A DNA stretch of 64,000 nt from Prorocentrum cordatum. Lineage: Eukaryota. Positions 5,817 through 64,000 of this stretch are shown here, in pieces. A program made the translations under genes and the position numbers. The notes under the pieces were generated by a model. It made no database searches. It had not been told where the DNA came from and saw only the letters and a list, made by a program, of their open reading frames with translations. The number at the start of each line of letters is the position of its first letter. Position 1 is the stretch's first letter. Location of the stretch: contig CAUYUJ010000159.1 of the NCBI GenBank assembly GCA_963575745.1, positions 372,001 through 436,000 on the forward strand, in the 5' to 3' direction.

Positions 5817-5858
5817 TCCGTCGCCATTTTGGATAAAGTCCGTAGCCTTTCGCTCAGG
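5817..5858 (+). other. Two tandem dinoflagellate spliced-leader relics
   Basis: TCCGTCGCCATTTTGGATAAAG (5817-5838, 19/22 to DinoSL) is directly followed by the more decayed TCCGTAGCCTTTCGCTCAGG (5839-5858). Confidence 0.75.
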
Positions 5859-9557: not shown

Positions 9558-12500
9558 TACTCATGGCAGGTCGTTGCCATCGCCAAGATTTACCAACATG
9601 TGCTGATTGCCTTGGATCCGACACTCATCTCAACTCGTGAAATATTTTCCACAAGCAACCTGCGCCTGTCATTGTTTCCACCGGCGGTCATTCAGGCCGG
9701 GCGGGAAAAAAAAACACAAGTTGTTGCACCGATTCGGGGTCACGAAAGAGGAGGAGCAGGAGGAAGAGGAGGAGGAGGAAGAGGAATAATAATAGCATTG
9801 GCCGCGGAGGCCATCGCCCGAATGCTTGTCAGTCTGGGCGCCCGCATGACCACCACTCCACCACTCCAAATGATTTAGCATCAGCCATTTGGTTGGCGGG
9901 CGACATGGGTGCGGGCACATGGAGCACACAAACCCAAGGAATCATCAGTACCGAAACAATATCGCCACACCCTCGCCGAACAACCCCGGTCGCATCTTCA
10001 CGGGGCGGCCCATGATGATGGGAGTTGACCGCGTACGTGCACTGCTTGACGAACGCGTACGTGGCCTACCCGAAATAGGTAGGTGTCGGGGACGTCGCCA
10101 GTCGACGTGCCAGAACACGTCGAAAATCACGCGGCCCCCGCCCTCGTCTCGTGCTCGTTGGCCCCAGTTGGCAGCCGCCTCCCCCTCTGCCTGTGGTCGG
10201 GTATCGCCCTGCCAAAAAAAACAGATCCACTTTTTGGTCGGCGGGGCGAGAGCGAACCCCTTCCGCTAAAAGCTAGGCGGGCTACGCACAGCTCTAATTG
10301 GGGAGACAAAAAGTGGCAGATACACGCGAAGATCACGACCCACACATGCGTTGCCCTGATGTTTTCCATGCGCGCCCTCCGAAATCCCGACCCCTTTCCC
10401 CGCGCTGGTCATCCTCGACGGTTTCGGGGCATGGCGAGCCGCGATCATGTTTGAACTCGAAGATCGCGCGGTCCTTGCCCTCGTGATCCTTGGCCCCTGT
10501 GGGCCATCCATGAGGACAGCGCAGCCCGCCCATGCCCCAGCCAGGAGCACCACTCCCGACCTGGCGATCTGATCTGGGGGGTCCTGGCTGGGGGCGGGGG
10601 TGGTTTTGGGATGCTCTGGGGTTTTGCTTTTGCGCGGTAAGTGCACGCGAAGTGTACGCAATGAGGCTTCCTCACGTATGATGATGGCAGGCCGCTGCGT
10701 CAAACGTAGCTTTCGCAGCGCGTTTGGCGGACTACTTCCGGGTCGCGTTTGGCGCGCCGCCAAAACTGTTTACTCAATTCTCTGCATACGCGTCTTCAGG
10801 ATGCACGGGTTGCCTGTTTGGGGCCAGACAACCGACCGCACCCCGCACCCCCAGCAACTACCTCCCAAATCACCGGGTCGGGAATGGAGGTCCTGGATGC
10901 GGGTTTCGAAGGTTGTTCAGGGCGTCCCCGGCCAAGGTGCCTCCCATTTTTCGTTCAATTTTGGACGGGTGCTCTGGAGGCGGTGTGGGTCTCCGCGCAA
11001 GCGAAGGGTCGTCGGGCAAAGGCCGCGACCAGCGCGCGCAGGCGGGCCCGAAAATGGCCAAACCCCACCGCGCGCGCGGGCCGACCGGCGCCGCTCCAAG
11101 GAACAAAAACCCTCTGGCTGCTCACGGGCAGCATCGGGACACCTTCGGCCACAGGCACTTCTAGCAACACCAGCCGCCCTGGCCACGCCCTTGGCCTCCG
11201 CCGCGGTGCCCCGAGCCCAGCTTTGGCACCGCCGGCCGGCCCGGGCCCAGACCAGGCCCGGCGGCTGGGCGGGCGCATCGCGCAGGGCCCCGGAGTGGCC
11301 GCGGCACCGGGCGGCGCTCCATGGTCACAGCGCCGCAATCCGAGCGCGCGGGCGCGCGACGGGCGGCCTTGCAGGCTGCGGAAACGACTGCACGGGACAC
11401 GCTTCGCAAACGCAGCGGCGCCACCCACCGCCTGCGCAGCGTGGCCGCCACGTCCATATCTTTGGCTGGCAGCCGCGTCAGCAAGTAACCCACGTGGAAG
11501 CGGGGCGGAAGGAGGGAGAAGGCCGCTCTAGTGGCCCTGGCTGGCGCACCCCCTCGTCCGTTGGGACGGACACTGCTGAACGGGGCACCGTTCCTGGGTT
11601 GCGGGGGCTGCGCCGGCTCCCGATCAAAGTGCGCGGGCGGACGTGTCTGCATCGGGAGCGAGAAAAAGGGTCTTAGATTCGTCGACGCGTCGCCTGGGTC
11701 GGAAGGAAGGACGGAGGAAGGATGGAGGAGAAGGAGGGAACGAGGCAGGGAGGGAACGTGAAGGGTCGAGGAAGGAAGCAACGAGGAAAGGACTTAGGAA
11801 ATGGGAGGATGCAGACATGTGACGTCTTGCATTTTCGATACCGAGTCCCCTGAAGTCTCGACCATTTTTCCCCAAGGGCCAGCTTTTCGCCCTGAGCCAT
11901 TGTTTGACAGACCCGAGGCCCGGCGGCAGCCCTCAAAGGCCGAAAACGGCCAGACGCCTTGCGTCGTGATTGCTTCAAGGCGCGAAAATGTCTGGGGAGG
12001 GAGAAGGATGAGGAGGAGGAGGAGGAGGAGGAGGAGAAGGAGGAGGAGGAGGAGGAGGAATAATCGGAATCGGAACAATCGCGAAGCGATAATGGGGGGG
12101 TAACACCACATCCCTACTCTCCCTGAACTTCCTGAGCGCCGAGACAAGCCAGATACCGAAAAGTATTCAGCAGAGGCTGCCTCCAAAGCCCGCCTGCCTC
12201 GCGCCTTCGCCAACACTGGGCGCCGTAAGCAGAACACAGCTACATGCAACACCATGCTCGTACATGTGGGCATGTGGAAGTACAGGTGTGCAACAATTCA
12301 AGAAATGAGAAGAGTGCCAAGCTCTAATGAAACAGAAACGAGTCTTCGCCACTTATGCCGGCACTCCCTCTTCAAGACACGCTTTCACATCTGCGGGCAG
12401 TCCCCCTTGCCGCCGCTCGCCGCTGCTGGGATTGGGGCTGCCCCTGACGGTTCTGTACGTATGGCCGACCAATCGATAATCGGCCCCGTTGGCACTGCAG

Positions 12501-13670: not shown

Positions 13671-13712
13671 CTAGCCAGCTTGAGCAACAGGGTTGCGTCC
13701 GCTGGTGGACGG

Positions 13713-13734
13713 CTTGGGCCAAGATGGTTACGGC
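13713..13734 (-). other. Spliced-leader relic
   Basis: Minus strand reads GCCGTAACCATCTTGGCCCAAG: 19/22 to DinoSL, ungapped, all three differences transitions. Confidence 0.8.
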
Positions 13735-16700
13735 CTGAAGGAGGAGGAGGAGGAGGAGGAGGGAAGAGGAGGATGGAAGAGGAGGAAGAGGAGGAGGAGG
13801 AAGGGGAGGACGGGGAGGGCAAGGGAAGACGGAAGGCAGCAGGGCGGGATGGAAAGAGGGAGGGCGCACCAGTTCGAACCAGGCCTGATCCACGCCACGC
13901 AGCGGGTAGTTCAGGGCTGCACGGGCCTGCCTCGCATGGCGGGAGGCGCCGCGGAAAGCGCAGGTGCGGGTTATGTGTTGCCTTTCCCCCCGGGCGCGGC
14001 CAGAAACATCCCGAGTGCTCGAAGGCCCGCCTGCACGCCCGAACTCCAAAAAAAAGGCGCCGGAAGAGAGGAGCAGGAGGGTGGATGGGGGGAAAGGGAA
14101 GAACGTGGGACGAGGGGGGGAAGGAGGACGGAACGAGCGGAAAGGAGGTGGGATGAGGAGGAGGAAAGGGAGGAAGGGAGAAGGGAAAGGAAGGGATGGG
14201 GGGGGGTGAGGGGGGAACGCACCAGTTCGGACAGGGAGTCTGCTCGCGGGTGCAGGCGCCCGCCGGGCCTGCCCGGCGGGCGCCTGCACCTTGGAAGCAG
14301 TGGTTGGGAAACTGCCCTCTACCAGGGGCACCGACTGGAAGCCAAACAAGTGTGGTGACGAAGACAGAATGCCCCCCTTCCGCACGCCCGCGGACACGGA
14401 GACGCCGGCTGTACACACGCTGTGGCCTGCGTGGTACTGCGCACGGGCAGTGACGGCGCCGCCGTGGGGCAGTCCCCGCGGCAGCTCAATGCGAGGGCAA
14501 CGGAACAGGTGCCAGCTGCGCACGGAGCTCACTGGGAGAGGGGGGGCGCTAGCATTGGCGCGCCGCGCTTTGAGCAGCAAGGTATGCTTGGAGGTTTTTG
14601 TTGGAAGGACGCCCCAAGAGAAGCGGCATGACGCAAAGCCTGCTGGAGGTCGTCCCAGGAGCTTGTGCTCGGTGGAACCTGTCAAGCAGCGGGGCTGGCT
14701 GTCCCTGCACGTGCTGGAGGGATTGGGCAAGGTGATTGGCCCGCTGTTGCAGCGCATTGATGCTATGGATGAGGATCGTTTCGCGATCAGCTTCTGGCTG
14801 TCGTCTGCCATCTTAGAGGTTCTGCGTAAGGGACTGCCTTCGATCAGTTTGCAAGGTCCCCGTCCCACCGAAGCCTGTCCTTTCATCGGCTAGTGACCGC
14901 TAGCTGCTCCCCGTACCCTGGTGGGAGGGCAGGGGAGGGGGAGAGCCCAGGGGGAAGGGAGGGAGAGGGGAAGGGAGGGGGGGAGAGGGAGGGACGGGAA
15001 GGGAGGGATGGGGAGGGGGAGGGGGGAGGGGAGGGGAGGCGGGACCGCCCCTCGCGGCCTCACCAGGACGCCGCCCTGGCCGCCGCCGCGGGACGCCGCG
15101 GGGCCCTCGCGCAGCCCGAGGCGGTCGGCCTGCCGGTCCACCCCACGACGGCCACGGCGGCGACCACGACGACGACGACGACGACGACCACGGCCGACGA
15201 CGGTCGACCAAGACAAACACGACGTCGGAGGACGACGACGACGACGACGACGACGAATGCGAGGACGGCAGAGCAACCCCCAGTTCGGGGCGTTGCAGAA
15301 AAATCGCGACGGCTGGCTTTTCGTCGTCGTTCGGCGTCTAGTGGCGCCACTTCCCGGCCCTGCAAGGCCGCCCCCCCCCCCCCCAAGAACAAATGGCAAA
15401 CACGGGGCCACCTACGTAACGGGGGGCGGGTCTTTCATCCCGAGTCGGCGCAGGATGAGAAGACGACCCCCGGGAAGTGGTCGACGTGGCAGGCAGGGGG
15501 GAGTGGACGGGGGGATGCAAGGAGGGCGAAGGAGGAGGCGGAGGAGGAGGAGGAGGAGGAGGTAAAGGAGGGCGAAGGAGGAGGTCCACGGGGAGAGGGG
15601 GGACGACGGCTACGACGTGAGCGAAGAGGAGGGCCGGGGACGGACGAGAGGAGGGCCAAGGGGGGGCAGCGTGGATCATCCTTCCTCTTTCCCTCATTCC
15701 CCGTCCTCCCTCCGCCGTCCTCCCTCCGCCATCCTCCTCCTCCTCCTCCTCGTCCTCCTCCTCCTCATCGTCCTCAATCCTTTCCCCTCACCCGCGCGCT
15801 CTCGCGCGCTCCTTCGTAGCGCGCTCGAGGGGAAAGAGGAGGTGGAGGAGGAGTGGGAGGGGAGTAGCAGGATGAACAGGACGAACTGGAGACGAAGGGA
15901 TGGGGGAAAGGAGAGGCAGGAGGGAGCGGAAGAGAAGAGGGAGGACTGACTGGCAGAATCAGCTGTGCGAAACGGATGAAGACAATTACCCGAGCCCGAT
16001 GCTGTCCATAACTGGCTGCAATGGTGCTGCACCCCTTCGGCGGAGGAATAAGATTTCGAGGAAGAGGACGGTGGAGGAGGGAAGGGGCAGAGGAAGGAGG
16101 GAAAAGGCTCCCACGCATTCACTCGGGGGGGGGGTATGGATGGGGCGGGAAAGTGTTGACACGCTCTATGTGGTGTGTGAAGATTCTGCAGGTTTGCATG
16201 TGGAAACGGCGAGAAGAGAGAAAAAACAAGATGAACTAACCAATGAAACATATCATCAATAACCCGACGACGCGGCACAAATAAGAATGTGTGTGCCAGA
16301 GACACTCGAAATATGAATGAACAACAGCTGGCTCCGGAGCGTGCGGACGCGGATGGGTTCCTGGATAGCCCCGCGGGGGGACTGGCCATTGGGGGCACCG
16401 AATCGGATTGCCAAGGCACTCACTCCGTGCCACTGAATCGGCCAGTAGGTGGGCGGTGCACGAGCTCGCCCCTGCTCTACCTAGATTGCAGCTCGGACTC
16501 GGTCATCAAGGAAGCACCTGCTCACGCGGAGCGCGGGGGGCCCGTCAGCCGTGAGCAGAACGTCTGCTGGCGGACCCAGACAAAACGCCGAGCCGACATC
16601 TCGAACACGACCGAGAGGGACGCAGGGACACACAAACGACCGAACCGACCGATCGAATGCACCGATTGCGGCGCAACCGAACGAAAAGGAGTCGCAGACA

Positions 16701-17974: not shown

Positions 17975-18074
17975 NNNNNNNNNNNNNNNNNNNNNNNNNN
18001 NNNNNNNNNNNNNNNNNNNNNNNNNNNNNNNNNNNNNNNNNNNNNNNNNNNNNNNNNNNNNNNNNNNNNNNNNN
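17975..18074. other. Assembly gap (100 N) between (GGA)n and (CCT)n tracts
   Basis: Run of N. Confidence 0.99.
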
Positions 18075-18105: not shown

Positions 18106-19428
18106 TCAGGCAGGCGACGCGAAGGCGACGTTCAGGCATGGATTGAGCAGGAGCATGTTGCGACAGCCTACCACATTATCATGCTTTCAGTGGATATAGC
18201 CATTGACACAGACATGGGGGACCTCATGCGCACGGATACTATCACACAGTGGGGTAAACATATCTTGGCTAGGCGGGTGTGGAACACAGGGGGGGGGGCC
18301 CCCTGTGAAACCTGGAGCGCGGCCAGATGGCTGGACGGGGGTCCCCCCCCACTACGTACACATGAGTGGTACTGGGGCGTCCCATGGATTTCTGAACGAC
18401 AGGCCCTCCAACTACACGCGGCCAATACGCTACTGCAGAACCTGGTGTTCCTCTTGGGCTGCCACATGGTGGCGGGGACTTCTGGGTGGATTGAACATCC
18501 TCTCCCGGCCCACTGGAGGCCAGAAGCCCCCAGCAGCTTCCACTGGGAGCCCCTAGAGGCCCTAGCCTCAGCCCCCATCACGATCACAGCCGACTTTGAC
18601 CAATGCACGTTGCAGCCGACAGATCGAGACCCTGCGGAGTTTGGAAGAGCTCCCACGCGTCTCCTCGGACTGAGAATGCCATGTTTGCGAAGACGCCTGT
18701 GCGAAGGACCAGGCAATGGCTGGTGTCGCCACGGGAAAGGAGTGCACAAAATACTGCAGGGGAAGGAGCTTGTTGGAGGACGCACAGTCTTTAAGACGCA
18801 TGCTAGGAAGACATATCCCGAGGAGATGTGTGCGCGCCTTGCAGCAGCCATTGCAGCCTCCATGCACAACATTTTCACAGATGCTGACAATGACGATCAG
18901 CACATGGATGAAAGCGCGCTGTGCGCTGACTTACGCAAGTTTTACCTGCCAGAGATAGGTGCGGACTTTGAGACAGCACCAGATTTCGCAGGAAGAACGA
19001 CCAAGATGCAGAGAGCTGATCCAGAGATGCACAGGTTCCAGGACGACCCCAGTGAGACTCCCAAGGGCCCCATATGTGCTCCGACTCCAGCTCCCACCCC
19101 TGCTCCGACTCCAGCTCCTGACCGCCCCAGCAGGAATATTCCCATGCATGAGCCTGGATCGGATGAGGAGTTAGAGAGTTGGTTGAGGCCTTTTCCCTCT
19201 CTCCCCTCCTCTCCCCCGCCGCCGCTGCCGCTTCCCCCTCCCCGCCCCTCTCTCACCCCGGCGCAGCTCGAGCGCATCGCCACCCATAGGGAGGAGGCGC
19301 TGCGCCGTCGTGAGCTACGACGCCAAGCTGCTCGAGAGGAGGACGCGAGGCGGAGGGCCCCGTGGAGGGGCAAGGTCTCCTTCGCCCAGGCCTTCCAGCC
19401 CTCCCCTCCCACCTTTTTCTTCTCCTAA
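18106..19428 (+). CDS. 5'-truncated retrotransposon-type C5 cytosine methyltransferase-like ORF with a Pro-rich linker and C-terminal helix
   Basis: Open frame from 18106: SGRRREGD (motif I-like), LSVDIAID...GDL (II/III-like), GGGAPCETWSAAR (catalytic PC, motif IV), WIEHP (VI-like), DQC, KTYPEEMC. DNMT domains are known in Symbiodiniaceae retrotransposons. Confidence 0.6.
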   Translation, partial: SGRRREGDVQAWIEQEHVATAYHIIMLSVDIAIDTDMGDLMRTDTITQWGKHILARRVWNTGGGAPCETWSAARWLDGGPPPLRTHEWYWGVPWISERQALQLHAANTLLQNLVFLLGCHMVAGTSGWIEHPLPAHWRPEAPSSFHWEPLEALASAPITITADFDQCTLQPTDRDPAEFGRAPTRLLGLRMPCLRRRLCEGPGNGWCRHGKGVHKILQGKELVGGRTVFKTHARKTYPEEMCARLAAAIAASMHNIFTDADNDDQHMDESALCADLRKFYLPEIGADFETAPDFAGRTTKMQRADPEMHRFQDDPSETPKGPICAPTPAPTPAPTPAPDRPSRNIPMHEPGSDEELESWLRPFPSLPSSPPPPLPLPPPRPSLTPAQLERIATHREEALRRRELRRQAAREEDARRRAPWRGKVSFAQAFQPSPPTFFFS

Positions 19429-19499
19429 AACTCCTGGGTAATGCCCCCGGGGTCGAGAAGCCTCTAGAGTGACCACGGCACCTCGCTCATGGCATCGTC

Positions 19500-19776
19500 C
19501 CACCACCACCCTCCCTCCCCTCCCCTCCCCTCCCCCCTCCCCTCCCCTCCCCTCCCTCCCCTCCCTCCTCCCTCCTCCTCCTCCTCCTCCTCCTCCACCA
19601 CCACCACAACTCTTGTTGTTCCTCCTGTTCTCCTCCTCCTCTTCCTGCTCCTCCTCCTCCTCCTCCTCCTCCTCCTCCTCCTCCTGTTCCTGCTCCTGTG
19701 TCCTCCTCCTCCTCCTCCTCCTCCTCCTCCCTCCTCCTCCTCCTCCTCCTCCCCCTCCTCCTCCTCCTCCTCCTCT

Positions 19777-19840
<64 letters not shown>

Positions 19841-19985
19841 CCGCCTCCTCCTCCTCCTCCTCCTCCTCCTCCTCTTTCTCCTCCTCTTTCTCCTCCTCCT
19901 TCTCCTCCTGCTCCTGTTCCTGCTCCTCCTCCTGCTCCTCCTCTTGCTGCTCCTCCTCCGCCTCTCTTCCTCCTCTCCCCCCCAG
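19500..19985. repeat. (CCT)n / (CTG)n microsatellite
   Basis: Directly visible. Confidence 0.95.
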
Positions 19986-20071
19986 AGCTGTTCAGAGCCC
20001 GGCGGAGAAACAGTTCAGGAGAGGCGGAATCCAAACGGAGTAAGCCCAGACGGAGGCCGAGCACTCGGCGT

Positions 20072-20097
20072 GGACTTCGTGTGGATTTCCTTTTTTT
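20072..20097 (-). repeat. Left direct repeat (candidate TSD, 20072-20090) plus oligo(A) remnant (T7 on plus strand, 20091-20097)
   Basis: GGACTTCGTGTGGATTTCC followed by TTTTTTT, 37 nt past the MoxR stop codon. Confidence 0.6.
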
Positions 20098-20134
20098 CTC
20101 GAGACGAGTCGAGCGTGGCGGGCGGCGCCGCACC

Positions 20135-21259
20135 TCACGCGGGCTCCAGCACGCCGCGGACGATGCTGGGCATATTGCGGTGCACCGCCTCTGGTACGCG
20201 GAAGGTCGTGAGGTAAGGCAGCACCCAGAGGTCCTCGGGCTCGCACTCCTCCCGGCCGTTCAGCACGGCCCTGGCCCGCATGACCCTCAGCGCCTTCACC
20301 AGGAAGGTGCGGTCAGTCAGCAGCGAGTTCTTCTGGGTCACGCCGTGCTTCTCGATCAGGACCCGCAGCAGCTCCAGCAGGGACCGTCTCACCCTGGGCG
20401 GCACACGCGTCTGGTCGAACGCCTCGGACGCCGCCCTGAGCTCGGCGGCGGCGCTGCCCGCGGACACGCCGGCGCCGGCCTGATCGTCGCCGTCGCCAAT
20501 CCCCTCGGAGAACAGCTCTATGATCCTCGCAACCTCATCCCAGCGGCCTGCCGCGATGGCGCCCTGGCTCTGCAGCTGAAGCACGAACCTGTCGAGGTTC
20601 GCTGGGTCCAGCGGTTCGGTGTAGTACCGGGAGCCAGGGTCGGACGGATTGGACGTGGCGATGGCCGTGCGGAGCGGTAGGTCCCAGGTCTGGCCGTGGC
20701 TGCTCGGGCCGCAGTACTGGCGCTCGTTGAGCAGCCGCAGGAGCACGTTGAGCGCCTCGCCCGGCGCCCGGGAGATGTCGTCGAGGACGCAGAGTTCCGC
20801 GGTGAGGATGCCGCCCGGGCGGGTCAGGCTCCGCACGATCTCGCCGCCCTCCGGGTGTGGCTCCCTGACGATCACCGCATCACCGATGAGCTCGTGTAGC
20901 TTTGTGTCGCGGTGCATCTGATAGAAGAAGAAGCCGAGGCCTGTGGCCTGCGCGGCGGTCTCTGCGAGCATGGTCTTGGCCACGCCTGGGGGGCCCTCGA
21001 TGTAGACGTGCTCTCGGGCCACGAGAGCCAGGAGCACGGCCTCCTTCCCGGCCTCGTGCCCTACGATGTGCTTGTCCATGGCCTGCCGGACCTGCCACAG
21101 CGGGGGCCGCCTCTCGGCAGAGGCACTCGCCGCAGCTCGCGTGGCCGCGCCACCTGCGGGCGGTGGCCATCCCGGCAGCCCCGCCGGCGCGCGCGCGAAC
21201 GGCCGCCAGCGCGGCGGCGGCGGCGGGAGGCGAGTGGGGGAGCAGCCGTGGCGCCACAT
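20135..21259 (-). CDS. MoxR-family (RavA-like) AAA+ ATPase, intronless, 374 aa, with an Arg/Pro/Ala-rich N-terminal extension
   Basis: IVGHEAGKEAVLLAL, Walker A EGPPGVAKT, Walker B CVLDDI, NVLLRLLNER, sensor I ATSN, arginine finger LDRF, lid LTDRT...RARAVLNGR...EDL. No stops; strong GC3 bias. Confidence 0.9.
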   Translation of the reverse strand: MWRHGCSPTRLPPPPPRWRPFARAPAGLPGWPPPAGGAATRAAASASAERRPPLWQVRQAMDKHIVGHEAGKEAVLLALVAREHVYIEGPPGVAKTMLAETAAQATGLGFFFYQMHRDTKLHELIGDAVIVREPHPEGGEIVRSLTRPGGILTAELCVLDDISRAPGEALNVLLRLLNERQYCGPSSHGQTWDLPLRTAIATSNPSDPGSRYYTEPLDPANLDRFVLQLQSQGAIAAGRWDEVARIIELFSEGIGDGDDQAGAGVSAGSAAAELRAASEAFDQTRVPPRVRRSLLELLRVLIEKHGVTQKNSLLTDRTFLVKALRVMRARAVLNGREECEPEDLWVLPYLTTFRVPEAVHRNMPSIVRGVLEPA

Positions 21260-21307
21260 CGCCGGGGCCGCTTACGCTACTCAGCCGGGGGGGAGGGCAG
21301 AAGGGTG

Positions 21308-21350
21308 CCTGGGCCAAGATAACTATACGGAGGACTCCGTGTGGACCTCC
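21308..21350 (-). other. SL relic (21308-21331) abutting the right direct repeat (candidate TSD, 21332-21350)
   Basis: Minus strand TCCGTATAGTTATCTTGGCCCAGG (DinoSL with a 2-nt insertion and 5 transitions), 48 nt upstream of the ATG. The adjacent GGACTCCGTGTGGACCTCC is 16/19 identical to the left repeat. Confidence 0.6.
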
Positions 21351-22369
21351 TCCGCGTGTAGACCCAGCTTCCCGTCAGGAGATGCGAGGTCCAGACTCAG
21401 TAAGCCCAGACGGAGATTGAGCCCTCCGTGCGGACTTACTCCGCATGGACTTTACGTCCTGCAGGGGAGGCGGAGGGAGGAGAGATCCGGGGGCGCACGG
21501 GAGGAAGCACGGAAGAGGGCGGAAGGAGTGGGGGAGCACGGCGGAGAGCGGGAGGAAGAAGGTTGGCAGGAAAGCGGAGGGCGGGAGGAAGGCAAGAGCA
21601 CGGGGAGACAAACCAGGCACGGATAATCGCCACTCCCCATGACCTCTCCCGGAGTGCGCCCTGATCGGGACTGTGCGGCGAAGCTGGCCGTGGCGACGAG
21701 GGATGGGCGGCGGTGCCGGTATTCTGACCTCCAGGGGCGACGGCGAGCGATGAAGCGCGCCTGGGCGATCGCCGCTCCCCCCGCCGGTCCTGGCGGCGTT
21801 CGTCGTCCCTCGCCTGCCTCTTGAGGTAGCCTTTGATGACACGCTTCAGCGGCGAGGAGGCCGCGGCCTGTCGCGCTGGGGGGCCTTCGGCCAGAGCTCC
21901 ACCTCTCCCGCGGCCTCCGTGCTCCTCCGGCCCCGCCTCGCCGCGCTTCCTCTCCACTCACCCCTCCTCGTCCTCCTCCTCCTGCTCCTCCTGCTCCGCC
22001 TCCTCCTCCTCCTCCTCCTCCTCCTCTTCCTCGTCCTCCTCCTCCTCCTCCTCCTCCTCCTCCTCCTCCTCCTCCTCCTATTCCTCCTCCTCCGCCTCCG
22101 CTTCCTCCCCTCGTCCCGTCTTCTCGTTTCCATCCTCCACATGCTCCTCCCTCTAGTCCCTTTGCCTCCTGCTGCACCTCCCCATCACCATCGCTATCAT
22201 CACCACCGCCATCACAATCTTCACCAAGCGTTATCAAGGCCCTTTCCCTTCAACTGATCCGGGGAGGGCGACAATCGGAACGAGTCCGACGTCCTCATCC
22301 TCGACCTCATCCTTGCCCCGTTCCTCCTGCTTCGTCCTCCATCTTTCGGCGGCGAACGAAGGGGAAGTG

Positions 22370-22560
22370 AAAGGATAAGGCCCTCTCGGAAGGCGGCAGG
22401 GTTTCTCAGAAGCCCTCCGACCTTCTGAGAAGTCGTCTGTGTTTTCGGGGAAGGTTTAGAACACCTCTCATAAAGCCCGAGAACCTCCGAGCCTTCTGAG
22501 AAGACCCGCCCCTGCCCACTTCCCCCCAAGGCTCGCCGCCGAAGCTCAGCCAGAATGCGA
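22370..22560. repeat. Dispersed repeat rich in CTTCT(C/G)AGAAG; related copy at ~51330-51450
   Basis: Shared GCCTTCTGAGAAG and TTCTCAGAAG motifs, and near-identical translations (KPSPKTQTTSQK vs EPSPKTQKTSQK) in opposite orientation. Confidence 0.6.
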
Positions 22561-36581: not shown

Positions 36582-37191
36582 TGGAAGAACAGGCTCGGCA
36601 GAGCCGAAATTCGTTACATGTTCGTTGCCATGTTCTGCGGTGCGGGAGGCATAGCCTAGCACGGCATAGAACAAGAGTCCCTCTTTCTGGTGTGCAATAG
36701 ACCGGTACGGCCAACCAAACAATCTGTTCCCAGAGAGCTGTTCGGGAACATAATAATTTAGTCGTTTAGGGCACTGCGGCCAGTGTCATCGTGCAGGCGC
36801 GGAGGCGTGTAGCAATGCCACCTCCGCGCAGGCACGACCAGAGGTGTGTAGCCATGACACCTCTGGTGCTGGGGGTGCGTAGCAATGCCGCCCCCAGCCA
36901 TAGGACAGTTTCTGTCCGGAACTGTTTCGGCTCAAGGCCCATTCGGTGCGATGGACAAGAAGAAAAGAAGTGACTCCCCTGCCACCCAACAGCTCCGACA
37001 ATTCAAACGAATCCTAGTATCAACTAATACTTTACTTTGTGAGCGTCTTGGGATAGAGCCCAAGGAGGTCCTCAAGGAGCCCCTCCCCACCAGCAGGGAG
37101 GACACGATACGTCTGCTGTCCGACATCGCTGACGGCAGATTGGTGATCCCAGAGCCTCAGTAGAACCAGCAGTGATGGAGCCCATCGGGGA
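36582..37191 (+). repeat. 5' terminal direct repeat (LTR-like, ~610 bp)
   Basis: Aligns with 43299-43913 with about 19 differences by eye, including one 6-nt indel. Begins TG. Confidence 0.9.
36951..37163 (+). CDS. 70-aa ORF of unknown function inside the terminal repeat (72-aa copy at 43667-43885)
   Basis: MDKKKRSDSPATQQLRQFKRILVSTNTLLCERLGIEPKEVL...GRLVIPEPQ. Open in both copies; ATG is 14 nt after an SL-like 22-mer. Confidence 0.45.
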   Translation: MDKKKRSDSPATQQLRQFKRILVSTNTLLCERLGIEPKEVLKEPLPTSREDTIRLLSDIADGRLVIPEPQ

Positions 37192-39625
37192 CACGTACGT
37201 GGGGCCACTCGAGAGCAGAGCCCTGCAAAGGATTATGAGCCCAAGCGCTCCCACGATCCACGGCACGCAGCTGGGGGCGCAAGTGCGCCAGTGTGCCGCC
37301 TGCTTCGACTGCGTCGTGGGGCCCGCCGTGCAGTGCGACAACTGCGGCGGGATTGTGCACGCCCACTGCATGCAGGTGTTCGGCCGGAGCCCGGTTTGCG
37401 TGACCTGCATCGCGGAGCGGGACGCTTTCGTGGCCGCGAGGCGCTCCACCATGATCCAGCACGGCGCGCAGCAGTTCGGCCGCGCCCTGGCTTCTGGTGG
37501 GCAGCTCGCCGGCTTGGTCGTCGGTGCCACCGCTTTCAGGCTTCGGGCCGGAGTCATTCGACTTGCCAGCGGAGAGCTGGCCGGCGCGAGGCAGACCATG
37601 GGCGGAGTGGCTGAGATCCCTGGGCCTGCCCGCCCACGCGCGCTGCCTGCACTGCAGCCCGCGGATGCCCTCCTGGAGGGCAGCAGCTCGGCATCGACAT
37701 GGCCGACAGGATGGCAGACATGGAAGCGGAGATGGTCAGGCTCCGAGCGGAGAACGCGCAATACCGCAAGGAGTTCGGACTTCACCAATCCGGAGGCGGC
37801 GGCTACGCGACTCCAGGCGCCAGCAGCGCCGCGGGTCGGCCAGCCCCATCGACTCCGCATACCACGAGTGCGGCTGCAGCCGCTGAGGTCGACCAGGAGG
37901 GCGCCGATGGTGCAGCAGCCCTCCTCGCCGCGGCCCTCAGCGATCCAGGTGTTGCCCAAGGGCCAGCCGACGGCATCGAGGTTGCTGCGGCGGTCGCGGC
38001 AGCGGCCGAGGCGCAGCACAGTGCAGGAGGAGCATCAGGAGGAGGTGCAGGAAGAGCGAGCGGGGAGCAGGCGGGAGAGGTGAGCGTCGCCGACCCTCAC
38101 CGAGCCACGGCGCCACCCGCGCCGAGCGCCGCCGTTGGCGGCGCAGGCCTCGCAGCTGAGGACGTCCTCCCGCCTGGACTTGGCGCTGCGCCCTGGCCGT
38201 GGTCATCGGCGAGTGCGACGGCTGCTGGTGACTTCGCTGGCGGTGCGAGCTCCGCTGATGCAGCAGGTCTTGCTGCTATCCTGAGCCGCTTGAAGGGCGA
38301 CGAGGTGCCAAATCTTTCTTGGACAGGAGGCAGCAAGGCATCGAAGTATGAGGAGTGGTTGCAGACCAACACCCTCTACTACGCGTCGGTGCACCCGCAG
38401 GTCGAGGCCTGGTGGTGCAACCTGCGCGCTGCGGTGGACGCTATCGTACGACGCGTACCTGCACGTGGACCCGCTGCAGCGGCCGTGCATCTGTCCCCAG
38501 ACGTCGTGGGCAGAGGTCGGGGCACAGAGGCAGGTGGAGTACAAGTATCGGCCCTACCTGCTCCTGGCCATGCCCGAGTCCATCAAGACCCAGGCACTCG
38601 CCACCAGGCAGTTGAGCTGCAGCGAGCTCGTGTTCGCCGTGTGCGTCGAGGCGGGCCCTGGCACCCTCCGGGATAGAGCTGCCACGTTGAAGGCAGTGGA
38701 GCGACGTGGCAATCCGGCCGCCCCAGCCCGGGGGGAGGTGTACGTCGAACTGCAGCGGTGGAAGTTTGACCTCACCAGGCTGCAACGCCTTGGTGCTGTG
38801 GCCCCAGACCCTACCATCCAGCTCACCACGCTGCGCACGCTGGTGAGCAAGATGGCGGAGGCCGACGAGGACTTCAAGTTCCGGATGAGCAACTGGCAGC
38901 TCGTTCGAGGCCTCAGTGGCGCTGCGAGCTGCAGCCAAAGCCAGATCGACGAGTTCTGGCGCTTCCTGGCCGGCGAGGCCCGTGAGGTCTCCACCGACGG
39001 GGCGAGGCAGCAGCAGCAGCAGCATCCGCAGCAGACTCAGCAGCTTGGCAAGCAGGTGCAAGCGAAGGTCGCGTCGCTGGAGGCGCAGATTGCCTTCCTA
39101 GAAGGAGCGGGCAAGGGCGGCGGTCAGCCGTTGAAGCCAGGTCCCACAGGCAAGGCTGGCGGACAGACCAAAGGCAAGAACAAGGGCAAGGACTCGGAGC
39201 AGTCGAAGTTCTGCCAGTCCTTCGAGTCCGACGCTGGCTGCAAGCAGGGCGGCACATGCACGTGGCCGCACAGCAAGCTGCAAGCGAGCGAGGGGAAGTG
39301 CTTCAACTGCGGAAGCAAGGAGCACGCCAAGGACGCCTGCGCGCGCCCAAAGCGCGAGGCGGCGGCCAAGGCAGCAGAGGTTGCCATGAAGCCAGGAGGT
39401 GGTTCTGCCTCGGCTTCGGACCCAGGCGGCGCTGGTGCGCAGACACAGCCTGCGGCGCAGGCGGGTCAGCTCGGGGCCGTGGTGGCTGCGACGATCAAGG
39501 CTCTGGCAGGAGAGGGATCGCCTGGTGCCGCGCTTGCCGTCGCGCCCGCGGACGCGGACCCTGGATGGCTGGACAGATGGGCGACGTCGACGGCTCGGGC
39601 GGCAAGCCCCCGCGCGCAGCGGTAG
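37175..39625 (+). pseudogene. gag: Copia gag region (PHD finger, gag core, CCCH finger, CCHC knuckle), split by frameshifts
   Basis: C4HC3 finger at 37292-37408; CQSFESDAGCKQGGTCTWPH at 39212-39271; CFNCGSKEHAKDAC at 39299-39340. Spread over ORFs 37172-38083, 37699-38676 and 38348-39625. Confidence 0.8.
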
Positions 39626-42600
39626 CCGTGGCACGCCTGGTGGAAGTTGGCGGCAAGCGGATGTTGCTCGCCGACACGGGCGCCACGCACGATCTGCGCT
39701 CGATCCCTGTGGGAGGTGACCCTGGGGTCGGGACGCGGCGCGTCGATCTGCAGACGGCGACGGGCAGCATGGAGGCCAGGATGGGCGAGGACGACGTGGT
39801 GTACGTTGAGTCCGATACCCCTCTCCAGCCGCTCTTCCCGCTGGGGATCTACATCGAGGAGTGCGGGCTCGGCCTCGAGTGGACGCCTGAGGCTTGCATG
39901 TTGCGGCTGCCAGACCACAGAAGTTTGGAGTTGCAGTGCGTGGAGGGCAGCATCTACATCGCGGATGGCGATGCGGAGGTGCTGCGGCAGTTTCGCGCTG
40001 CTATGCGTTTGGCGCGCGGTCGTGCCATGGAGACCCAGGCGATCAGGGCCGCAGTTTTGCTGACGGAGCTGGCGAAGCATCGATCAGAAGGGCATCCCAC
40101 CTTTATGGCGGAGTGCCGCGAGTGCAAGCTCGCCGCAGGGCGCATGCGCCCGCACTATCGCCTGGACCCTTCTAACCGGCCAGGTGGGCAGCTTTCGGTT
40201 GACCTGAGCGGCCCCCATCCGCCTGGACGGTGGCCGAGTTCATTGCAGGAGGACGCGCCGAGGAGGGCGCAGTACTTCCTGCTCTGCGCCTACCAAGTGC
40301 TGACGCAGGCGGAGGTGGAGCAGCAGGGCCGCAACGTCGCGGACGCGGGGGCGGCCGCAGCGGCTGGCGACGCCGCGACGCCTGCTCAGGTCCGGCGCCA
40401 GGAGCGCTGGGGACAGCGGCACCGCCGCCGAGGACGACGTCGGCGCGGTGAGCCGAAGGTCTGGTACTTCACCGTCCCGCTGGAGCGGAAGACGGCCGAG
40501 GAGTGCATCAGGGCGCCTGATGCCGTTGTGGCGGCGGTCGGGCTCGAGTTCCAGGGGCAGGCGGTCTTTCGCATCCACGCGGATCGTGCCCCAGAGCTCT
40601 CAGGACCGCGCGTGCGAGACCACTTCGCCACGAAGCAGATCGTGGTCACCAGGACGCTGGGCGTCGAGCCCAACAATAATCCTCGCGCGGAGCGTGGCAT
40701 CGGCGTCATCAAGGGCCGCGCGAGGGCAATGCTGATGTCCTTCCCTGCCGCCGATCAGCAGCATCTCTGGCCAGCTGCCGTGCAGCATGCGAGCTGGTGC
40801 CAGCGGCGCTTGGCCATGGGGCGGGCGAATGACTGCCCAGCATTTGGGGACCTCGTCACGGCCAGGATCAAGGACCCTCCCAAGGCGGGCTTCGCAGCGC
40901 GAGGCAAAGACATGACCTTCCTGGGCAAGGAGGACCATACCTCTGGCAGCTATTTGGTGGGCCGGAGGGTGCGGGGCGCCAGGAAGGGCGAGGAGTGGAG
41001 TTTCGAGGTGTCGAGCTCCTACGTGGTCGACGCTTCGGCCGCGCTCCAGGATCCCGCGCTGTGCGACGCCAGAGGCAGTGCCGACGGCGGAGGTCGCCCT
41101 GTTGCCGCCGCGGCGCCAGGAGGAGGCCAGGAGGAGGACGAGGCAGAGGGCAGCAATCAGCCAGGAGATCAGGAGGAGGCAGTGGACGCCAGGAGGAGGA
41201 CAGGACGCCTGGATGAGGCAGCGGAGCCAGGAGAAGGGGAAGGTGACGGCATCTTCGAGGCGTTGTCCGATGAGCGGATCTTCTCGTGCCCAGCGTGCCG
41301 GGGCCGCCTTCGACCCCACACTCGGGACGAACGATGCCGCCTCGGAGCGCAGGCGGCGGCGGCGGTGCTGGCGTCGAGGAGCCAGGAGGAGGCGAATGCG
41401 GAGCAGGAGGAGAAGGAGTCCGGGCTCCCAGTCTTCCAGCAAGTGTTTAAGGAGAGTGGTTTTGCTCCCGCGACGGTTCGCGAGGTCGACCAGAGCTTCG
41501 GAGCTGAGCGGGAGGCCTGGCGACAGGCCCTGGGCGGTGAGCTCGAGTCCCTCCGAAGGAAGGATGCCTTCGAGGATCTATGTGCCGCGGAGGTGGCGTC
41601 GACGCCAGCCCGCAAGATCCTGCCTATGAAGATGGTGCTCGGCACGAAGCCTCGAAGCGAGGCCGATGGCGGCGGCCGCAAGCATAAGGCCCGCGGCTGC
41701 ATCTGTGGCAACTTCCAGCCGCAGGTCCCTGGCGAGGAGACGTTCAGCGCGTCGGTGGACATTGCCAGCTTGCGACTCGTCTTGGCCGTCGCCGCAGCGA
41801 ACCAGTGGGCATGCTCTGCCCTGGACGTGGCCACGGCGTTCTTGAACGTGGAGCTGCCGCCAGAGACTGGGGAGGTCCTCGTCCGACCTCCAGCCATCCT
41901 CCCCCGCTTCGGGTTGGTGCAGGCGGGGGCCCTGTGGCGCGTGAAGCAGGCCATGTATGGTCTGCGCGTCGCGCCGCGCGCGTGGTGGGAGAAACGTGAC
42001 CGCACCCTGCGCGAGAAGGCCCTCATGGTCGAGGGTGAGCGCTGCCGGCTTCGGCAGTCTCACAGGTTGACCAATGTTTGTGGGCGATCGTGAACAAGCA
42101 GGACCGCGTGCTGGGCTACGTGTGCGTCTACGTCGACGATTTCCTGATGGTAGGGGAAACCGCTGCCATCAGAGCGGTATCCGACATGTTGGAGTCGACG
42201 TGGACCTGGTCAGTGCAGTCGTCGATCTCTCCTGCGCACCCTGGCAGCATCAAATACTTGTCTCTTTCGATTCGGGCACGCGCTGACGGGTACTAGATCC
42301 ACCAGCAGGAATACTTGGAGGAGTTGCTGGCCAAGTGGGGCCTCGATCGTGGCAATGGCGTGGGCACGATCGTAATCGACCCCCTGCCTGAGCAGCCAGC
42401 CGACGCGGACGAGCAGGATGCAGTCAACTTAGGGCAGGTCCGTCTCGCACAGAGGATGTCCGGCGGACTCCTGTGGCTTTCGGGCCGCACGCGCCCCGAC
42501 GTGGCGTTCGCAGTATCTCGGCTATCTTCGGCCGCCGCACTTTACCCAGAGTGGGCCCTCAAGCTGGGAAAGAAGATCTTGAGGTACCTGGCTGGGACTC

Positions 42601-43298: not shown

Positions 43299-43913
43299 TG
43301 AAGAACAGGCTCGGCAGAGCCGAAATTCGTTACATTTTCGTTGCCATGTTCTGCGGTGCGGGAGGCATAGCCTGGCACGGCATAAAACAAGAGTCCCTCT
43401 TTCTGGTGTGCAATAGACCGGTACGGCCAGCCAAACAATATGTTCCCAGAGAGCTGTCCGGGAACATAATAATTTAGTCGTTTAGGGCACTGCGGCCAGT
43501 GTCATCGTGCAGGCGCGGAGGCGTGTAGCAATGCCACCTCCGCGCAGGCACGACCAGAGGTGTGTAGCCATGCCACCTCTGGTGCTGGGGGTGCGTAGCA
43601 ATGCCGCCCCCAGCCATAGGACAGTTTCTGTCCGGAACTGTTTCGGCTCAAGGCCCGTTCGGTGCGATGGGCAAGAAGAAAGGAAATGACTCCCACAAGC
43701 CTGCCACCCAACAGCTCCGACAATTCAAACGAATCCTAGTATCAACTAATACTTTACTGTGTGAGCGTCTTGGGATAGAGCCCAAGGAGGTCCTCGAGGA
43801 GCCCCTCCCCATCAGCAGGGAGGACACGATACGTCTGCTGTCCGACATCGCCGACGGCAGATTGGTGATCCCAGAGCCACAGTAGAACCAGCAGTGATGA
43901 AGCCCATCGGGGA
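43299..43913 (+). repeat. 3' terminal direct repeat (LTR-like)
   Basis: Copy of 36582-37191, preceded by a polypurine tract. Confidence 0.9.
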
Positions 43914-61899: not shown

Positions 61900-64000
61900 C
61901 ACTCGTGTTCGGGTTCAGTTACCTGAAGTTGAAGAGCGACCTGCAAGGCCTAAGGATATTCCAGTACCAAAGGCCGCTTCCCCCAAGGCTGCCCCTGCCT
62001 CGCCTACGGCGCCGCCATCGCCGCCAAGAGCAACAACAGGCCAAAAGAGATCGGAGACATCTACAATGCTTTCACCTCCAGGCGAGAAGCAACAAAGAGC
62101 ATCTTCAGCATCATCATCTCACCCGACATTGCCGATTGCAGAGCCGACGACCACTACATCAACGGCAGCGGGAACCTCTACTCCCCAGCATGTTCGAAGC
62201 ATTCCTTCTCAGCGAACCTCCCCAGAACATGACGGGGAACATTATCCCGATGCAGTGCGGCAAGCAGAACCTTCACCAGAGAAAAGAGCTGAAGATCTGG
62301 ACCAGACTATGGAGCACCCTGAAGCTGAAGGTCCATCACACCAGGCGACCGAGCACCCTGCCAATAAAGATCCTGGCAACACCATCGAGCATCCCGAAGG
62401 CACCTTGGATAAGACCCTCGACTACAAGGATCTGCAAGTTTCCAGATATGTCACACCATTTCCAATATGGTGGGCTTCTCCAGCAGAGAGTTCGCTCGAC
62501 GAAGCTCATGGCGACTATGCAGCAGATTACATGAACCACGCGTTCCACGATGCAGAGCTTCTCCTACACCAGGCCCTTACCTCGGCATGAAAAGGAGGCT
62601 CTCCTGGTAGTTCGAGGCCCCTGTCGTACCTCACGCTGTTTCTAATATGATTTCAAGGATGACGAGTGTTTGTGTATCGATCAGTGAGATTCTCACTCCA
62701 GAGGAGATCATTGCCCATTGGCCAGCAGTTGGAGCAGCAGACAGGAAGGAGGTCAACAGTTCTGTCTCATGGTATCTTCAAGCTCGCACCAGCCTCAGCT
62801 TCCAACAATACCATCGACGGTACGTGGGCTCGGAAGTGGTCAGATCGTTCAAAAGGGCTGGTGACAGATATTGTGGACGAGGCTTTCTTGACCGACAGAA
62901 GACGAGTATTGACAGACACAATTCAACAGCGTCACGACTTTCTCACCGCTTGGCAGTATCGTTGGCAGCTCAATACGACCTCGTGATCGAGAGTCTAGAC
63001 ATCCGCACGGCCTTCTTGCAGGGCCTCAAGATTTCTGGAGTTGAACGCCGGGCAGCTGAACTGGGACACGAAGTGAAGCAGCTTCGGAAGGTCTGGTTCA
63101 AGCCACCTCCAAACGTGTGGAGGCATCTTCGAGACATCGATCGCAGTGGCATCTGTGTGCAGGACCAGGACATAACCTACTTCGTGCTCGAGCTGTTGAA
63201 GGCCATATATGGACTCGTTGACGGCCCTCTCTTATGGCAGCTGGCACTGGCGAACTTCATGGTCAAAGAACTGAGTTTCATGAGCGCCTATCATGATGAT
63301 ATGGTTTTACATTACTTATGCATGGGATATCGTGGCGATTTATATCACTCATGTGGATGACATCCTGGCGATCGCTTCTCAGAGCTTCTTGGACAGGACC
63401 TACATACGATTGTCAGAACGTTTCGGCGCAGTCAAGAGATGCGTTCTTCCATTGATAGATGTTGGAATACGTCATTCTATGCCATCACCAGGACACTACT
63501 TCCTGGATCAAGAACATTGACTGATGAAGCTAACTCCAGCAGAGGCAACCGACGCTAAGCGACTCAAAACGACAGCCTGCCCTTGGACAAGACAGAACTC
63601 AAGGAACTCAGACCGTTGTTGTGTAGTCTCTTATGGGTTTGCCTGACACGTGTGGATCTATGTCGTGGAGTTGTACTTCTACAAAGCGAAAGGTCAGCCC
63701 TCTGATGACACACTTGAAGCAGCATAACGCTCTCTTGGCCCGCGCCATCAAGAGCAAGACGATGAATGGACTTCACTTTGTAAGCTACAGTGGCCCCTAC
63801 GACTGGTATCTATCACGGACGCAGGACATGCATCAAAGAGGTCAGGTTATCCCTTTGAAAGCAAAATGGTCGAGCTCATGAGCGAGCCCACTGTGCACTA
63901 TGACAGCAAAGAGTTGTGGCCTATGACAGAAGCATTGAATTTCGGATGCTATGGTCACACTCTCTATTTCACGGCAAGGAAAGCAGCACGAGTGAGTCAC
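61900..64000 (+). mobile_element. Decayed second Copia-type pol (RT into RNase H), running off the window
   Basis: AADRKE, TWARKW, RYCGRGFLD, STASRLSHRL, SLDIRTAFLQG, LLKAIYGLVDGPLLW and THVDDIL across frameshifted frames (62647-63520). Left boundary uncertain. Confidence 0.8.

Follow-up and report, generated by a model that had tools for sequence, protein, structure and literature searches.

A 64-kb window of the genome of the GC-rich dinoflagellate Prorocentrum cordatum (the window being the whole stretch of DNA that was analyzed) carries an expressed, single-exon nuclear gene for a MoxR-type AAA+ ATPase, which lies between a decayed spliced-leader (SL) relic and a short run of A residues. 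Read on the minus strand (21550-19900), the locus appears to be a functional processed copy of a trans-spliced, polyadenylated mRNA, a reading to which we give a probability of about 0.7. An earlier reading made from the letters of this DNA (the sequence-only reading) had proposed that a full-length mRNA was inserted here by the machinery of a long interspersed nuclear element (LINE), and all its coordinates and counts were reproduced. The intact, unspliced and expressed gene, the SL-like string and the A-run stand, whereas the target site duplication (TSD), the LINE machinery and the argument from the lack of introns were not established. The features of the locus are given below in the order of transcription; the spacer and the trailer were delimited by sequence reading.

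21375..21455, minus strand: R1, upstream copy of a palindromic repeat, in which two 15-nt units are followed by a loop and then by two inverted units; its 63-nt core (21375-21437) is 78% identical to 20015-20077
21351..21374, minus strand: 24-nt spacer with another R-type unit, GGTCTACACGCGGAG (loose-motif match, site 21363)
21332..21350, minus strand: U2, upstream 19-mer GGAGGTCCACACGGAGTCC, candidate TSD copy; 16/19 identical to 20090-20072, its last base adjoining the SL-like string
21308..21331, minus strand: decayed SL relic TCCGTATAGTTATCTTGGCCCAGG, with a likeness to the dinoflagellate spliced leader (DinoSL) that is not significant alone and an exact 11-mer shared with a clear relic
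21260..21307, minus strand: 48-nt 5' leader, covered by RNA contigs of runs X1 and X3 with 0 differences
20135..21259, minus strand: single-exon open reading frame (ORF), ATG to TGA, 374 aa, with Pfam profiles, homologues and collinear RNA contigs
20098..20134, minus strand: 37-nt trailer from the stop codon to the A-run
20091..20097, minus strand: A7, candidate poly(A)-tail remnant, the sole minus-strand A-run of at least 7 in the window
20072..20090, minus strand: D, downstream 19-mer GGAAATCCACACGAAGTCC, candidate TSD copy that at the same time forms the 5' arm of the R2 hairpin; adjoins A7
20015..20090, minus strand: R2, downstream copy of the palindromic repeat, within the present 3' untranslated region (UTR), known from the repeat match, its hairpin and RNA coverage by X1, X15 and a 151-nt contig of X3
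19979..21323, minus strand: transcribed unit as far as the contigs show, the RNA contigs being identical to the window
19470..19990, minus strand: (AGG)n-type purine microsatellite, starting where RNA contigs end

In the history that we propose, a full-length cDNA, from the first base of the leader through the poly(A), would have been integrated into an array of short palindromic R units, and about 19 bp of target, corresponding to the 5' arm of R2, would have been duplicated on integration. Decay would afterwards have brought 5 transitions and an insertion of TA into the leader, the tail would have shrunk to A7, and the two 19-mers would have diverged by 3 transitions, with the ORF presumably held intact by selection throughout. 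The oligo(A) and the duplication point to a LINE-type target-primed enzyme as the putative integrator.

The MoxR gene and its transcripts

The 374-aa ORF matched four Pfam profiles above their cut-offs: AAA_5 (69.2 bits; cut-off 22), bpMoxR (PF20030; 63.4 bits; cut-off 27), AAA_3 (47.7 bits; cut-off 27) and AAA_lid_8 (26.4 bits; cut-off 22.8). The match to bpMoxR covered positions 5-164 of the 205 of the profile. The protein consists of a basic N-terminal extension of about 60 aa followed by a bpMoxR/AAA_5 ATPase with an AAA lid, and the GC content at third codon positions (GC3) of the ORF is 0.89. A search of a protein collection returned 871 matches among 8,000 scored candidates, of which the best 120 were looked at. 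Among these, 22 were of dinoflagellate type. One of them, P0001, is the product of the window itself (314 aa, starting at the internal Met61), and the other 21 were 68 to 91% identical (alignment A1), the closest being P0002 (91%). Among them are a protein of Effrenium voratum and a gene model labelled “symbB,” and many others are products of contigs of 1.1 to 1.4 kb. In the ranking of the best 120, the dinoflagellate-type proteins are followed by bacterial-type MoxR and MoxR-vWA proteins at about 50% identity. Some of the MoxR-vWA fusions carry Tectomicrobia/Entotheonella and deltaproteobacterial names.

The alignment of 25 sequences (A1) revealed that the window protein keeps the family residue at every invariant column, including the GPPGVAKT stretch of the P-loop. 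These columns include G89-P-P-G92-x-x-K95-T96, D160-D161 and R224, which we take to be the P-loop GxxGxxKT, the acidic Walker B and the arginine residues of the family. The N-terminal extension, which ends in a PL..V...(M/L)D motif, recurs in several homologues of full length, and for this reason translation probably does start at the upstream ATG. The window protein showed 2 private changes, and P0002 showed 5, at the 216 columns that the 20 other dinoflagellate-type sequences conserve. A quick maximum-likelihood tree, unrooted and built on 49 rows (P0001-P0023, every fourth further match and P0118, with fused proteins trimmed to 345 aa), set the 22 dinoflagellate-type rows apart from the others by a branch with a Shimodaira-Hasegawa-like approximate likelihood ratio test (SH-aLRT) value of 99. 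In this tree P0001 pairs with P0002, and their terminal branches measure 0.079 and 0.094, respectively. The few private changes and these branch lengths suggest that the window copy is not accelerated. Orthologous transcripts were also sought in a scan of Joint Genome Institute (JGI) metagenomes, which gave 24 loci: only one, L001, was dinoflagellate-like (75% amino acid identity), 22 were of bacterial type at 47 to 58%, and 1 stood at 36%. Between the window gene and L001, the proportion of nonsynonymous differences (pN) was 0.165 and that of synonymous differences (pS) 0.843, the latter being saturated, so that only pN is usable.

As judged from this conservation, the ORF is a real and intact MoxR-type AAA+ ATPase gene kept under selection across dinoflagellates, and the unbroken, intronless frame of the sequence-only reading agrees with the profiles, the homologues and the RNA contigs. 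The dinoflagellate family seems to go back to a single old acquisition of a gene of bacterial type, a direction of transfer that we infer from an unrooted tree. The dinoflagellate proteins are devoid of the vWA half and seem to have gained the variable basic N-terminal extension, possibly an organelle-targeting peptide. A vWA partner was sought among the long ORFs of the window only, and none of them gave a vWA Pfam match.

The MoxR stretch, or part of it, was present in 20 of the 24 public runs listed (9 studies), 6 of them on record as RNA. Contigs of four runs were aligned to 19985-21700; X15 and X16 are poly(A) RNA-seq, and the kind of X1 and X3 is not on record. Since the contigs of X1 and X3 stop before the unique upstream sequence, both were treated as RNA-like. 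The contigs covered 19983-21318 (X1), 19988-21107 (X15), 20139-21120 (X16) and 20108-21323 plus 19979-20129 (X3), and in all four runs they showed 0 differing letters, 0 gaps and 0 splice joints relative to the window. The MoxR gene is therefore transcribed and unspliced. Splicing out of the ORF at a GTGAG near 20138, which the sequence-only reading had named as a result that would speak against it, was not seen: contigs of two runs cross this site without joints. Contigs cannot show RNA ends, so all contig stops are weak hints only. With this limit, the 5' ends of contigs from two studies fall inside the SL-like string, at 21318 (X1) and 21323 (X3), 0 to 5 nt from an internal AG (21324-21323). 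They end without loose letters, and the stretch 21324-21376 is uncovered. We suppose that a new leader is probably added at this AG inside the old one, the transcript going on from TTATCTTGGCCC. RNA contigs of 2.1 to 2.6 kb, present in all four runs, come from a distant AAA paralogue; they match the window in the P-loop region (33 nt with 5 mismatches, 20964-20996) and in an 18-nt patch (20365-20382). As a candidate parent of the MoxR gene, this longer transcript was rejected because its likeness is too low.

Probable leader relic, A-run and 19-mer pair

DinoSL is printed as DCCGUAGCCAUUUUGGCUCAAG in PMC5585692. The SL-like 24-mer of the MoxR locus corresponds to this 22-nt leader with 5 transitions and a 2-nt TA insertion (gapped match of 17/22), and its longest exact matches are TCCGTA (6 nt) and TTGGC (5 nt). 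It stands 48 nt before the ATG, on the right strand, where the RNA contigs end. The window contains two exact copies of its core, the 11-mer ATCTTGGCCCA, and the second falls within a clear relic at 13713-13734 that is 18/21 identical to DinoSL (2 such matches arose in 0/100 shuffles). Beyond the edges of the leader, the two loci show no likeness. Under a looser test of leader origin, namely likeness to other relics of the same genome, the MoxR string is thus recovered through this 11-mer. Because it is positioned at the contig ends near the ATG and shares the 11-mer with a clear relic, it is probably a genuine SL relic. The 13713-13734 relic has the same two T-to-C positions as that of MoxR; a leader variant ending in ...CCATCTTGGCCCAAG, with ATCTTGGCCCAAG, used now or formerly, may be common to both, or parallel T-to-C drift may explain the likeness.

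Other relics were observed in the window. The best DinoSL matches form a tandem at 5817-5858 (plus strand), TCCGTCGCCATTTTGGATAAAG followed directly by TCCGTAGCCTTTCGCTCAGG (scores 32 and 26), the mark expected of mRNAs that were recycled more than once; downstream of them, (CCT)n begins at about 6900. At 13679-13734 (minus strand), the clear relic GCCGTAACCATCTTGGCCCAAG is preceded by (CCT)n and CAG and followed by a more decayed second relic ending in GCTCAAG. About 1.7 kb downstream of it, at 11973-12060 (minus strand), (CCT)n and CAG precede a weak SL-like string, ACATTTTCGCGCCTTGAAG. This recurrent layout of polypyrimidine microsatellite, AG and relic looks like trans-splice acceptor regions. 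At the relic loci 5817-5858 and 13713-13734, no oligo(A) with a TSD was found, the flanks being microsatellites or showing no likeness, so that no general pattern emerges.

The 3' side of the locus is marked by A7, 37 nt after the stop codon. Only four A-runs of at least 7 occur in the 64 kb, three on the plus strand and A7 on the minus strand. The oligo(A) that the sequence-only reading had placed at 20097-20091, directly before the second repeat copy, is thus confirmed as a rare feature at the 3' end, though the run is short and read through in two of the four runs. For three of the four A-runs, 9706-9714 (+), 14048-14055 (+) and 20091-20097 (-), an (AGG)n-type array follows on the same strand within 8 to 110 nt. 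Old poly(A) tails may have seeded these arrays as microsatellites, or the arrays may represent a 3' end that belongs to a shared repeat.

The two 19-mers that abut the relic and A7 are 16/19 identical, and their three differences are all G/A on the minus strand (C/T on the plus strand). To keep the repetitiveness of the locus, they were compared with all 131 × 88 = 11,528 pairs of 19-mers from the real flanks (21480-21332 and 20090-19985). Sixteen pairs reached at least 16/19: 15 lie in the R1/R2 register, and the sixteenth, U2/D, abuts both junctions. It is also the only pair of at least 15/19 outside that register. The chance of such a junction-abutting pair is about 0.1 to 0.2% when the start of the leader and the last base of the A-run fix the boundaries independently, and a few per cent when they may slide. 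When the opposite hairpin arm of R2 is read as an outgroup, U2 has two of the three changes and D one, a polarity that fits, and does not prove, a duplication of the R2 arm. A single long TSD formed by R1 and R2 (about 80 nt) was rejected, since R1 lies 43 nt from the leader and the two copies are 78% identical, less than the 84% of the 19-mers.

The 19-mer is an arm of a palindromic repeat and belongs to a local family of units. For this reason the TSD proposed in the sequence-only reading is favored by the position of the 16/19 pair at both junctions and not proven, and we see the odds that U2/D is a genuine TSD as roughly even. The complete target-primed footprint on a trans-spliced mRNA, in which the first base of the leader, the oligo(A) end and a 19-bp target duplication are all preserved, is a more tentative proposition, about which we are rather doubtful.

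Flanking repeats and alternative origins

The flanks of the gene are more repetitive than the sequence-only reading had cautioned. The 17-mer that it noted at 20039-20055 and 21399-21415 is exact, and it understated the case: a 63-nt repeat absent from that reading (20015-20077 and 21375-21437) flanks the gene in a different register (spacing of 1360, versus 1260 for the 19-mers). Both R1 and R2 consist of 15-nt units like AAGTCCNNNCGGAGT together with their complements, arranged as imperfect palindromes; this palindromic, hairpin-forming nature is likewise absent from the sequence-only reading. The predicted hairpin of R1 reaches -39.5 kcal/mol (z = -2.66; 3/200 shuffles as good) and that of R2 -26.2 kcal/mol (z = -1.98; 9/200 shuffles as good). 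No further R copies were found in the window beyond the two flanking ones and an inverted 14/17 match inside R1, and Rfam gave no match in 19000-22500 at E values up to 1. R-like pieces (20018-20066 and 21403-21444; 2 to 4 mismatches) are present in other RNA contigs of X1, X3 and X15. They sit 45 and 144 nt from one end of contigs of 1342 and 2088 nt and also occur in contigs of 167 to 171 nt, and the loose ends of those transcripts show tandem units such as AAGTCCGTACGGAGT. The R family is therefore dispersed and transcribed and is perhaps a UTR element or one resembling a miniature inverted-repeat transposable element (MITE).

These repeats make room for a different origin, in which a resident single-exon MoxR gene, derived from an old bacterial transfer, would have had palindromic R repeats (MITE-like or UTR elements) settle on both sides, with the SL-like string, A7 and the 19-mers as by-products of the repeats and of chance. 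We consider this unlikely, but several observations weigh against retroposition or speak for a resident gene. The lack of introns may be ancestral and does not by itself speak for a recent retroposition: the nearest relatives outside the dinoflagellate group are bacterial-type proteins (MoxR and MoxR-vWA) at 47 to 58% identity, the family being nearest to bacterial-type single-ORF genes, and an intronless gene is to be expected anyway if the family came from bacteria. With such relatives and the 22 dinoflagellate-type rows in one group, the intronless state needs no retroposition. A tblastn search of the window revealed no parent or paralogue fragment, its only returns being the gene itself and one 42-aa match (E = 0.041).

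The evidence on the relic is divided in the same way. By likeness to canonical DinoSL alone, the site is not significant: its fitting-alignment score is 18, and 14 sites in the window score at least 18, versus a mean of 7.1 (range, 4 to 12) in 12 Markov simulations. PMC5585692 accepts relics that lie no more than 500 bp before the ORF and match exactly over 9 nt or more; the MoxR relic reaches 6 nt at best. The SL relic that the sequence-only reading placed at 21331-21308 is thus upheld by its position and the shared 11-mer and not by its canonical score or an exact 9-mer. Moreover, its first six bases, TCCGTA, are also found in the repeat-unit consensus drawn from the loose ends of other transcripts, which makes the 5' junction partly ambiguous, and a repeat unit followed by TCCGTA is expected from a tandem unit array in any case. 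An unusually good fold (z = -2.94; 0/200 shuffles) was also predicted for the region 21375-21300, which holds U2 together with the SL-like string; a third R-like palindrome would behave in this way, and R1, R2 and this region all fold as hairpins. The L001 transcript, whose first bases are GCTCAG, shows no relic in its leader of 34 nt, an observation that has no bearing on the age of the window locus. Against a resident gene, the exact 11-mer ATCTTGGCCCA is common, in the window, only to the MoxR relic and to the independent clear relic.

For the 3' side and the duplication, the same alternative is favored by the repeat family. D is the 5' arm of the palindromic R2, from the local family of 15-nt units; eight more relatives of the 19-mer at 12 to 14/19, not noted in the sequence-only reading, occur in the flanks in both orientations, so that 16/19 is only two matches above the background of the family. 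R-like pieces also lie near the ends of other transcripts, as described above. In addition, transcripts of X1 and X15 (two of the four runs) cross A7, D and R2 to 19983-19988, at least 108 nt past A7, and A7 is consequently not the sole present 3' end. Against it stand the rarity of A7 on its strand and its place 37 nt after the stop, the fact that no pair but the junction-abutting U2/D attains 15/19 without being in the R1/R2 register, and the need for three rare features to fall together precisely at the ends of a single transcription unit.

The contig ends on this side bear on a further alternative, in which the gene was retroposed with other boundaries and without a 19-bp TSD: the parent mRNA would have ended near 19983, with R2 already within the 3' UTR, the (AGG)n array would have been seeded by the poly(A) tail of this mRNA, A7 would be internal, and the likeness of the 19-mers would be that of their family. 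Contigs of three runs do end at 19979-19988, exactly at the start of (AGG)n. Such arrays follow three of the four A-runs of at least 7, and other transcripts carry R-like elements close to one of their ends. Yet no upstream-flank repeat that could be a TSD was found beyond the (AGG)n array (best match, 11 nt), and assemblies break at low-complexity arrays anyway, so these stops say little. Furthermore, the main X3 contig ends at 20108, and its read-through piece (151 nt) has a depth of 2.8, about 8-fold lower than the 23.6 of the main contig. This alternative is in our view very improbable. With the main X16 contig ending at 20139, the contigs give a weak hint only that some 3' ends lie close to the old tail and others over 100 nt beyond it, where (AGG)n starts.

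As regards the machinery that the processed-copy reading would require, the long ORFs of the window were scanned against Pfam (122 queries, 121 distinct ORFs). Only two matched, both to RVT_2 (copia-type reverse transcriptase): the ORF 38986-42090 (1035 aa; E = 8.7e-15) and a fragment at 62611-63357. No LINE-type reverse transcriptase or endonuclease was found among these 121 distinct ORFs, which also counts against the proposed mechanism. The MoxR gene is isolated in the window, the other long ORFs with Pfam matches being copia-type reverse transcriptases only. Direct repeats at 36584-37191 and 43300-43913 (plus strand), 6716 to 6722 bp apart and 97 to 98% identical, surround the longer RVT_2 ORF, and the element between them is probably a young long terminal repeat (LTR) retrotransposon. 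Each of the LTR-like repeats carries TCCGGAACTGTTTCGGCTCAAG, which ends like a spliced leader. About 2 kb from the MoxR locus lies a scaffold gap of 100 N (17975-18074).

Comparison with known retrogenes and bacterial relatives

Retrogenes with DinoSL relics account for about 22 to 23% of the genes in two Symbiodiniaceae genomes, according to the available parts of PMC6050394 and PMC5585692, and the available part of PMC12014239 describes them as widespread in transcriptomes. PMC6050394 cites Slamovits and Keeling 2008 and Jaeckisch 2011 for work on such retrogenes. The MoxR locus resembles them in having an SL-like string tens of bases before the start codon of an intron-free expressed gene. 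In a known pattern (PMC12014239, same part), an acceptor inside the relic leaves a truncated CCATTTTGGCTCAAG, or “DinoRL,” after the new leader; the internal AG of the MoxR relic is placed as such a new acceptor, and the truncated relic matches CCATTTTGGCTCAAG at 10/15. Unlike the relics in those published descriptions, that of MoxR is more decayed, with a longest exact match of 6 nt and no 9-mer. Beyond what these descriptions report in the text available, the locus carries an adjoining oligo(A) and a flanking direct repeat. The term “target site duplication” was not met in the available text of the dinoflagellate retrogene papers surveyed, and papers beyond this survey or supplements could hold cases. 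In the literature searched, as far as its text was available, “dinoflagellate,” “spliced leader” and “target site duplication” came together only in work on Amoebophrya intronic elements. On the enzymes involved, the available text of PMC5585692 (Song et al. 2017) states that they are “presumably provided by LINEs,” names copia as a candidate that has been proposed and adds that “direct evidence is still lacking.”

The layout of the MoxR locus, a direct repeat, a full-length processed mRNA, oligo(A) and a direct repeat, is that of mammalian LINE-1 retrocopies, and 19 bp is within the usual range of a TSD. Mammalian LINE-1 processed retrocopies arise by target-primed reverse transcription. The MoxR insert differs from them in its 5' end, which is a trans-spliced leader and not a cap-site sequence, and in its flanking repeat, which has no A-rich start and is a member of a palindromic family. 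Its setting differs as well, since no LINE was seen in the window, where the only reverse transcriptase is of the copia type (RVT_2).

Retroposition of SL-capped mRNAs is held to be a main force in the growth of dinoflagellate genomes. Taken alone, the locus adds a single retrogene candidate, with an ambiguous duplication, to an abundant class. Its novel part would be a readable target-primed footprint, which is favored by position and weakened by the palindromic family, by the read-through and by the failure to find a parent or a LINE in the window. If true, this footprint would be locus-level evidence that a LINE-type endonuclease and reverse transcriptase make dinoflagellate retrogenes, as opposed to the proposed LTR/copia route, and the combination of relic, A-run and abutting repeat would provide a search template for a genome-wide test.

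The gene product, for its part, resembles the bacterial bpMoxR ATPases of MoxR-vWA(-beta-propeller) systems, as seen in the PF20030 profile match and in the identity of 47 to 58%. Unlike the bacterial relatives, many of which are MoxR-vWA fusions of about 640 aa, the dinoflagellate proteins have about 315 to 390 aa without a vWA domain, and unlike bacterial bpMoxR they carry the basic N-terminal extension. The MoxR gene offers, in addition, a clean example of a bacterial-type ATPase that was fixed, extended at its N terminus and kept under selection across dinoflagellates.

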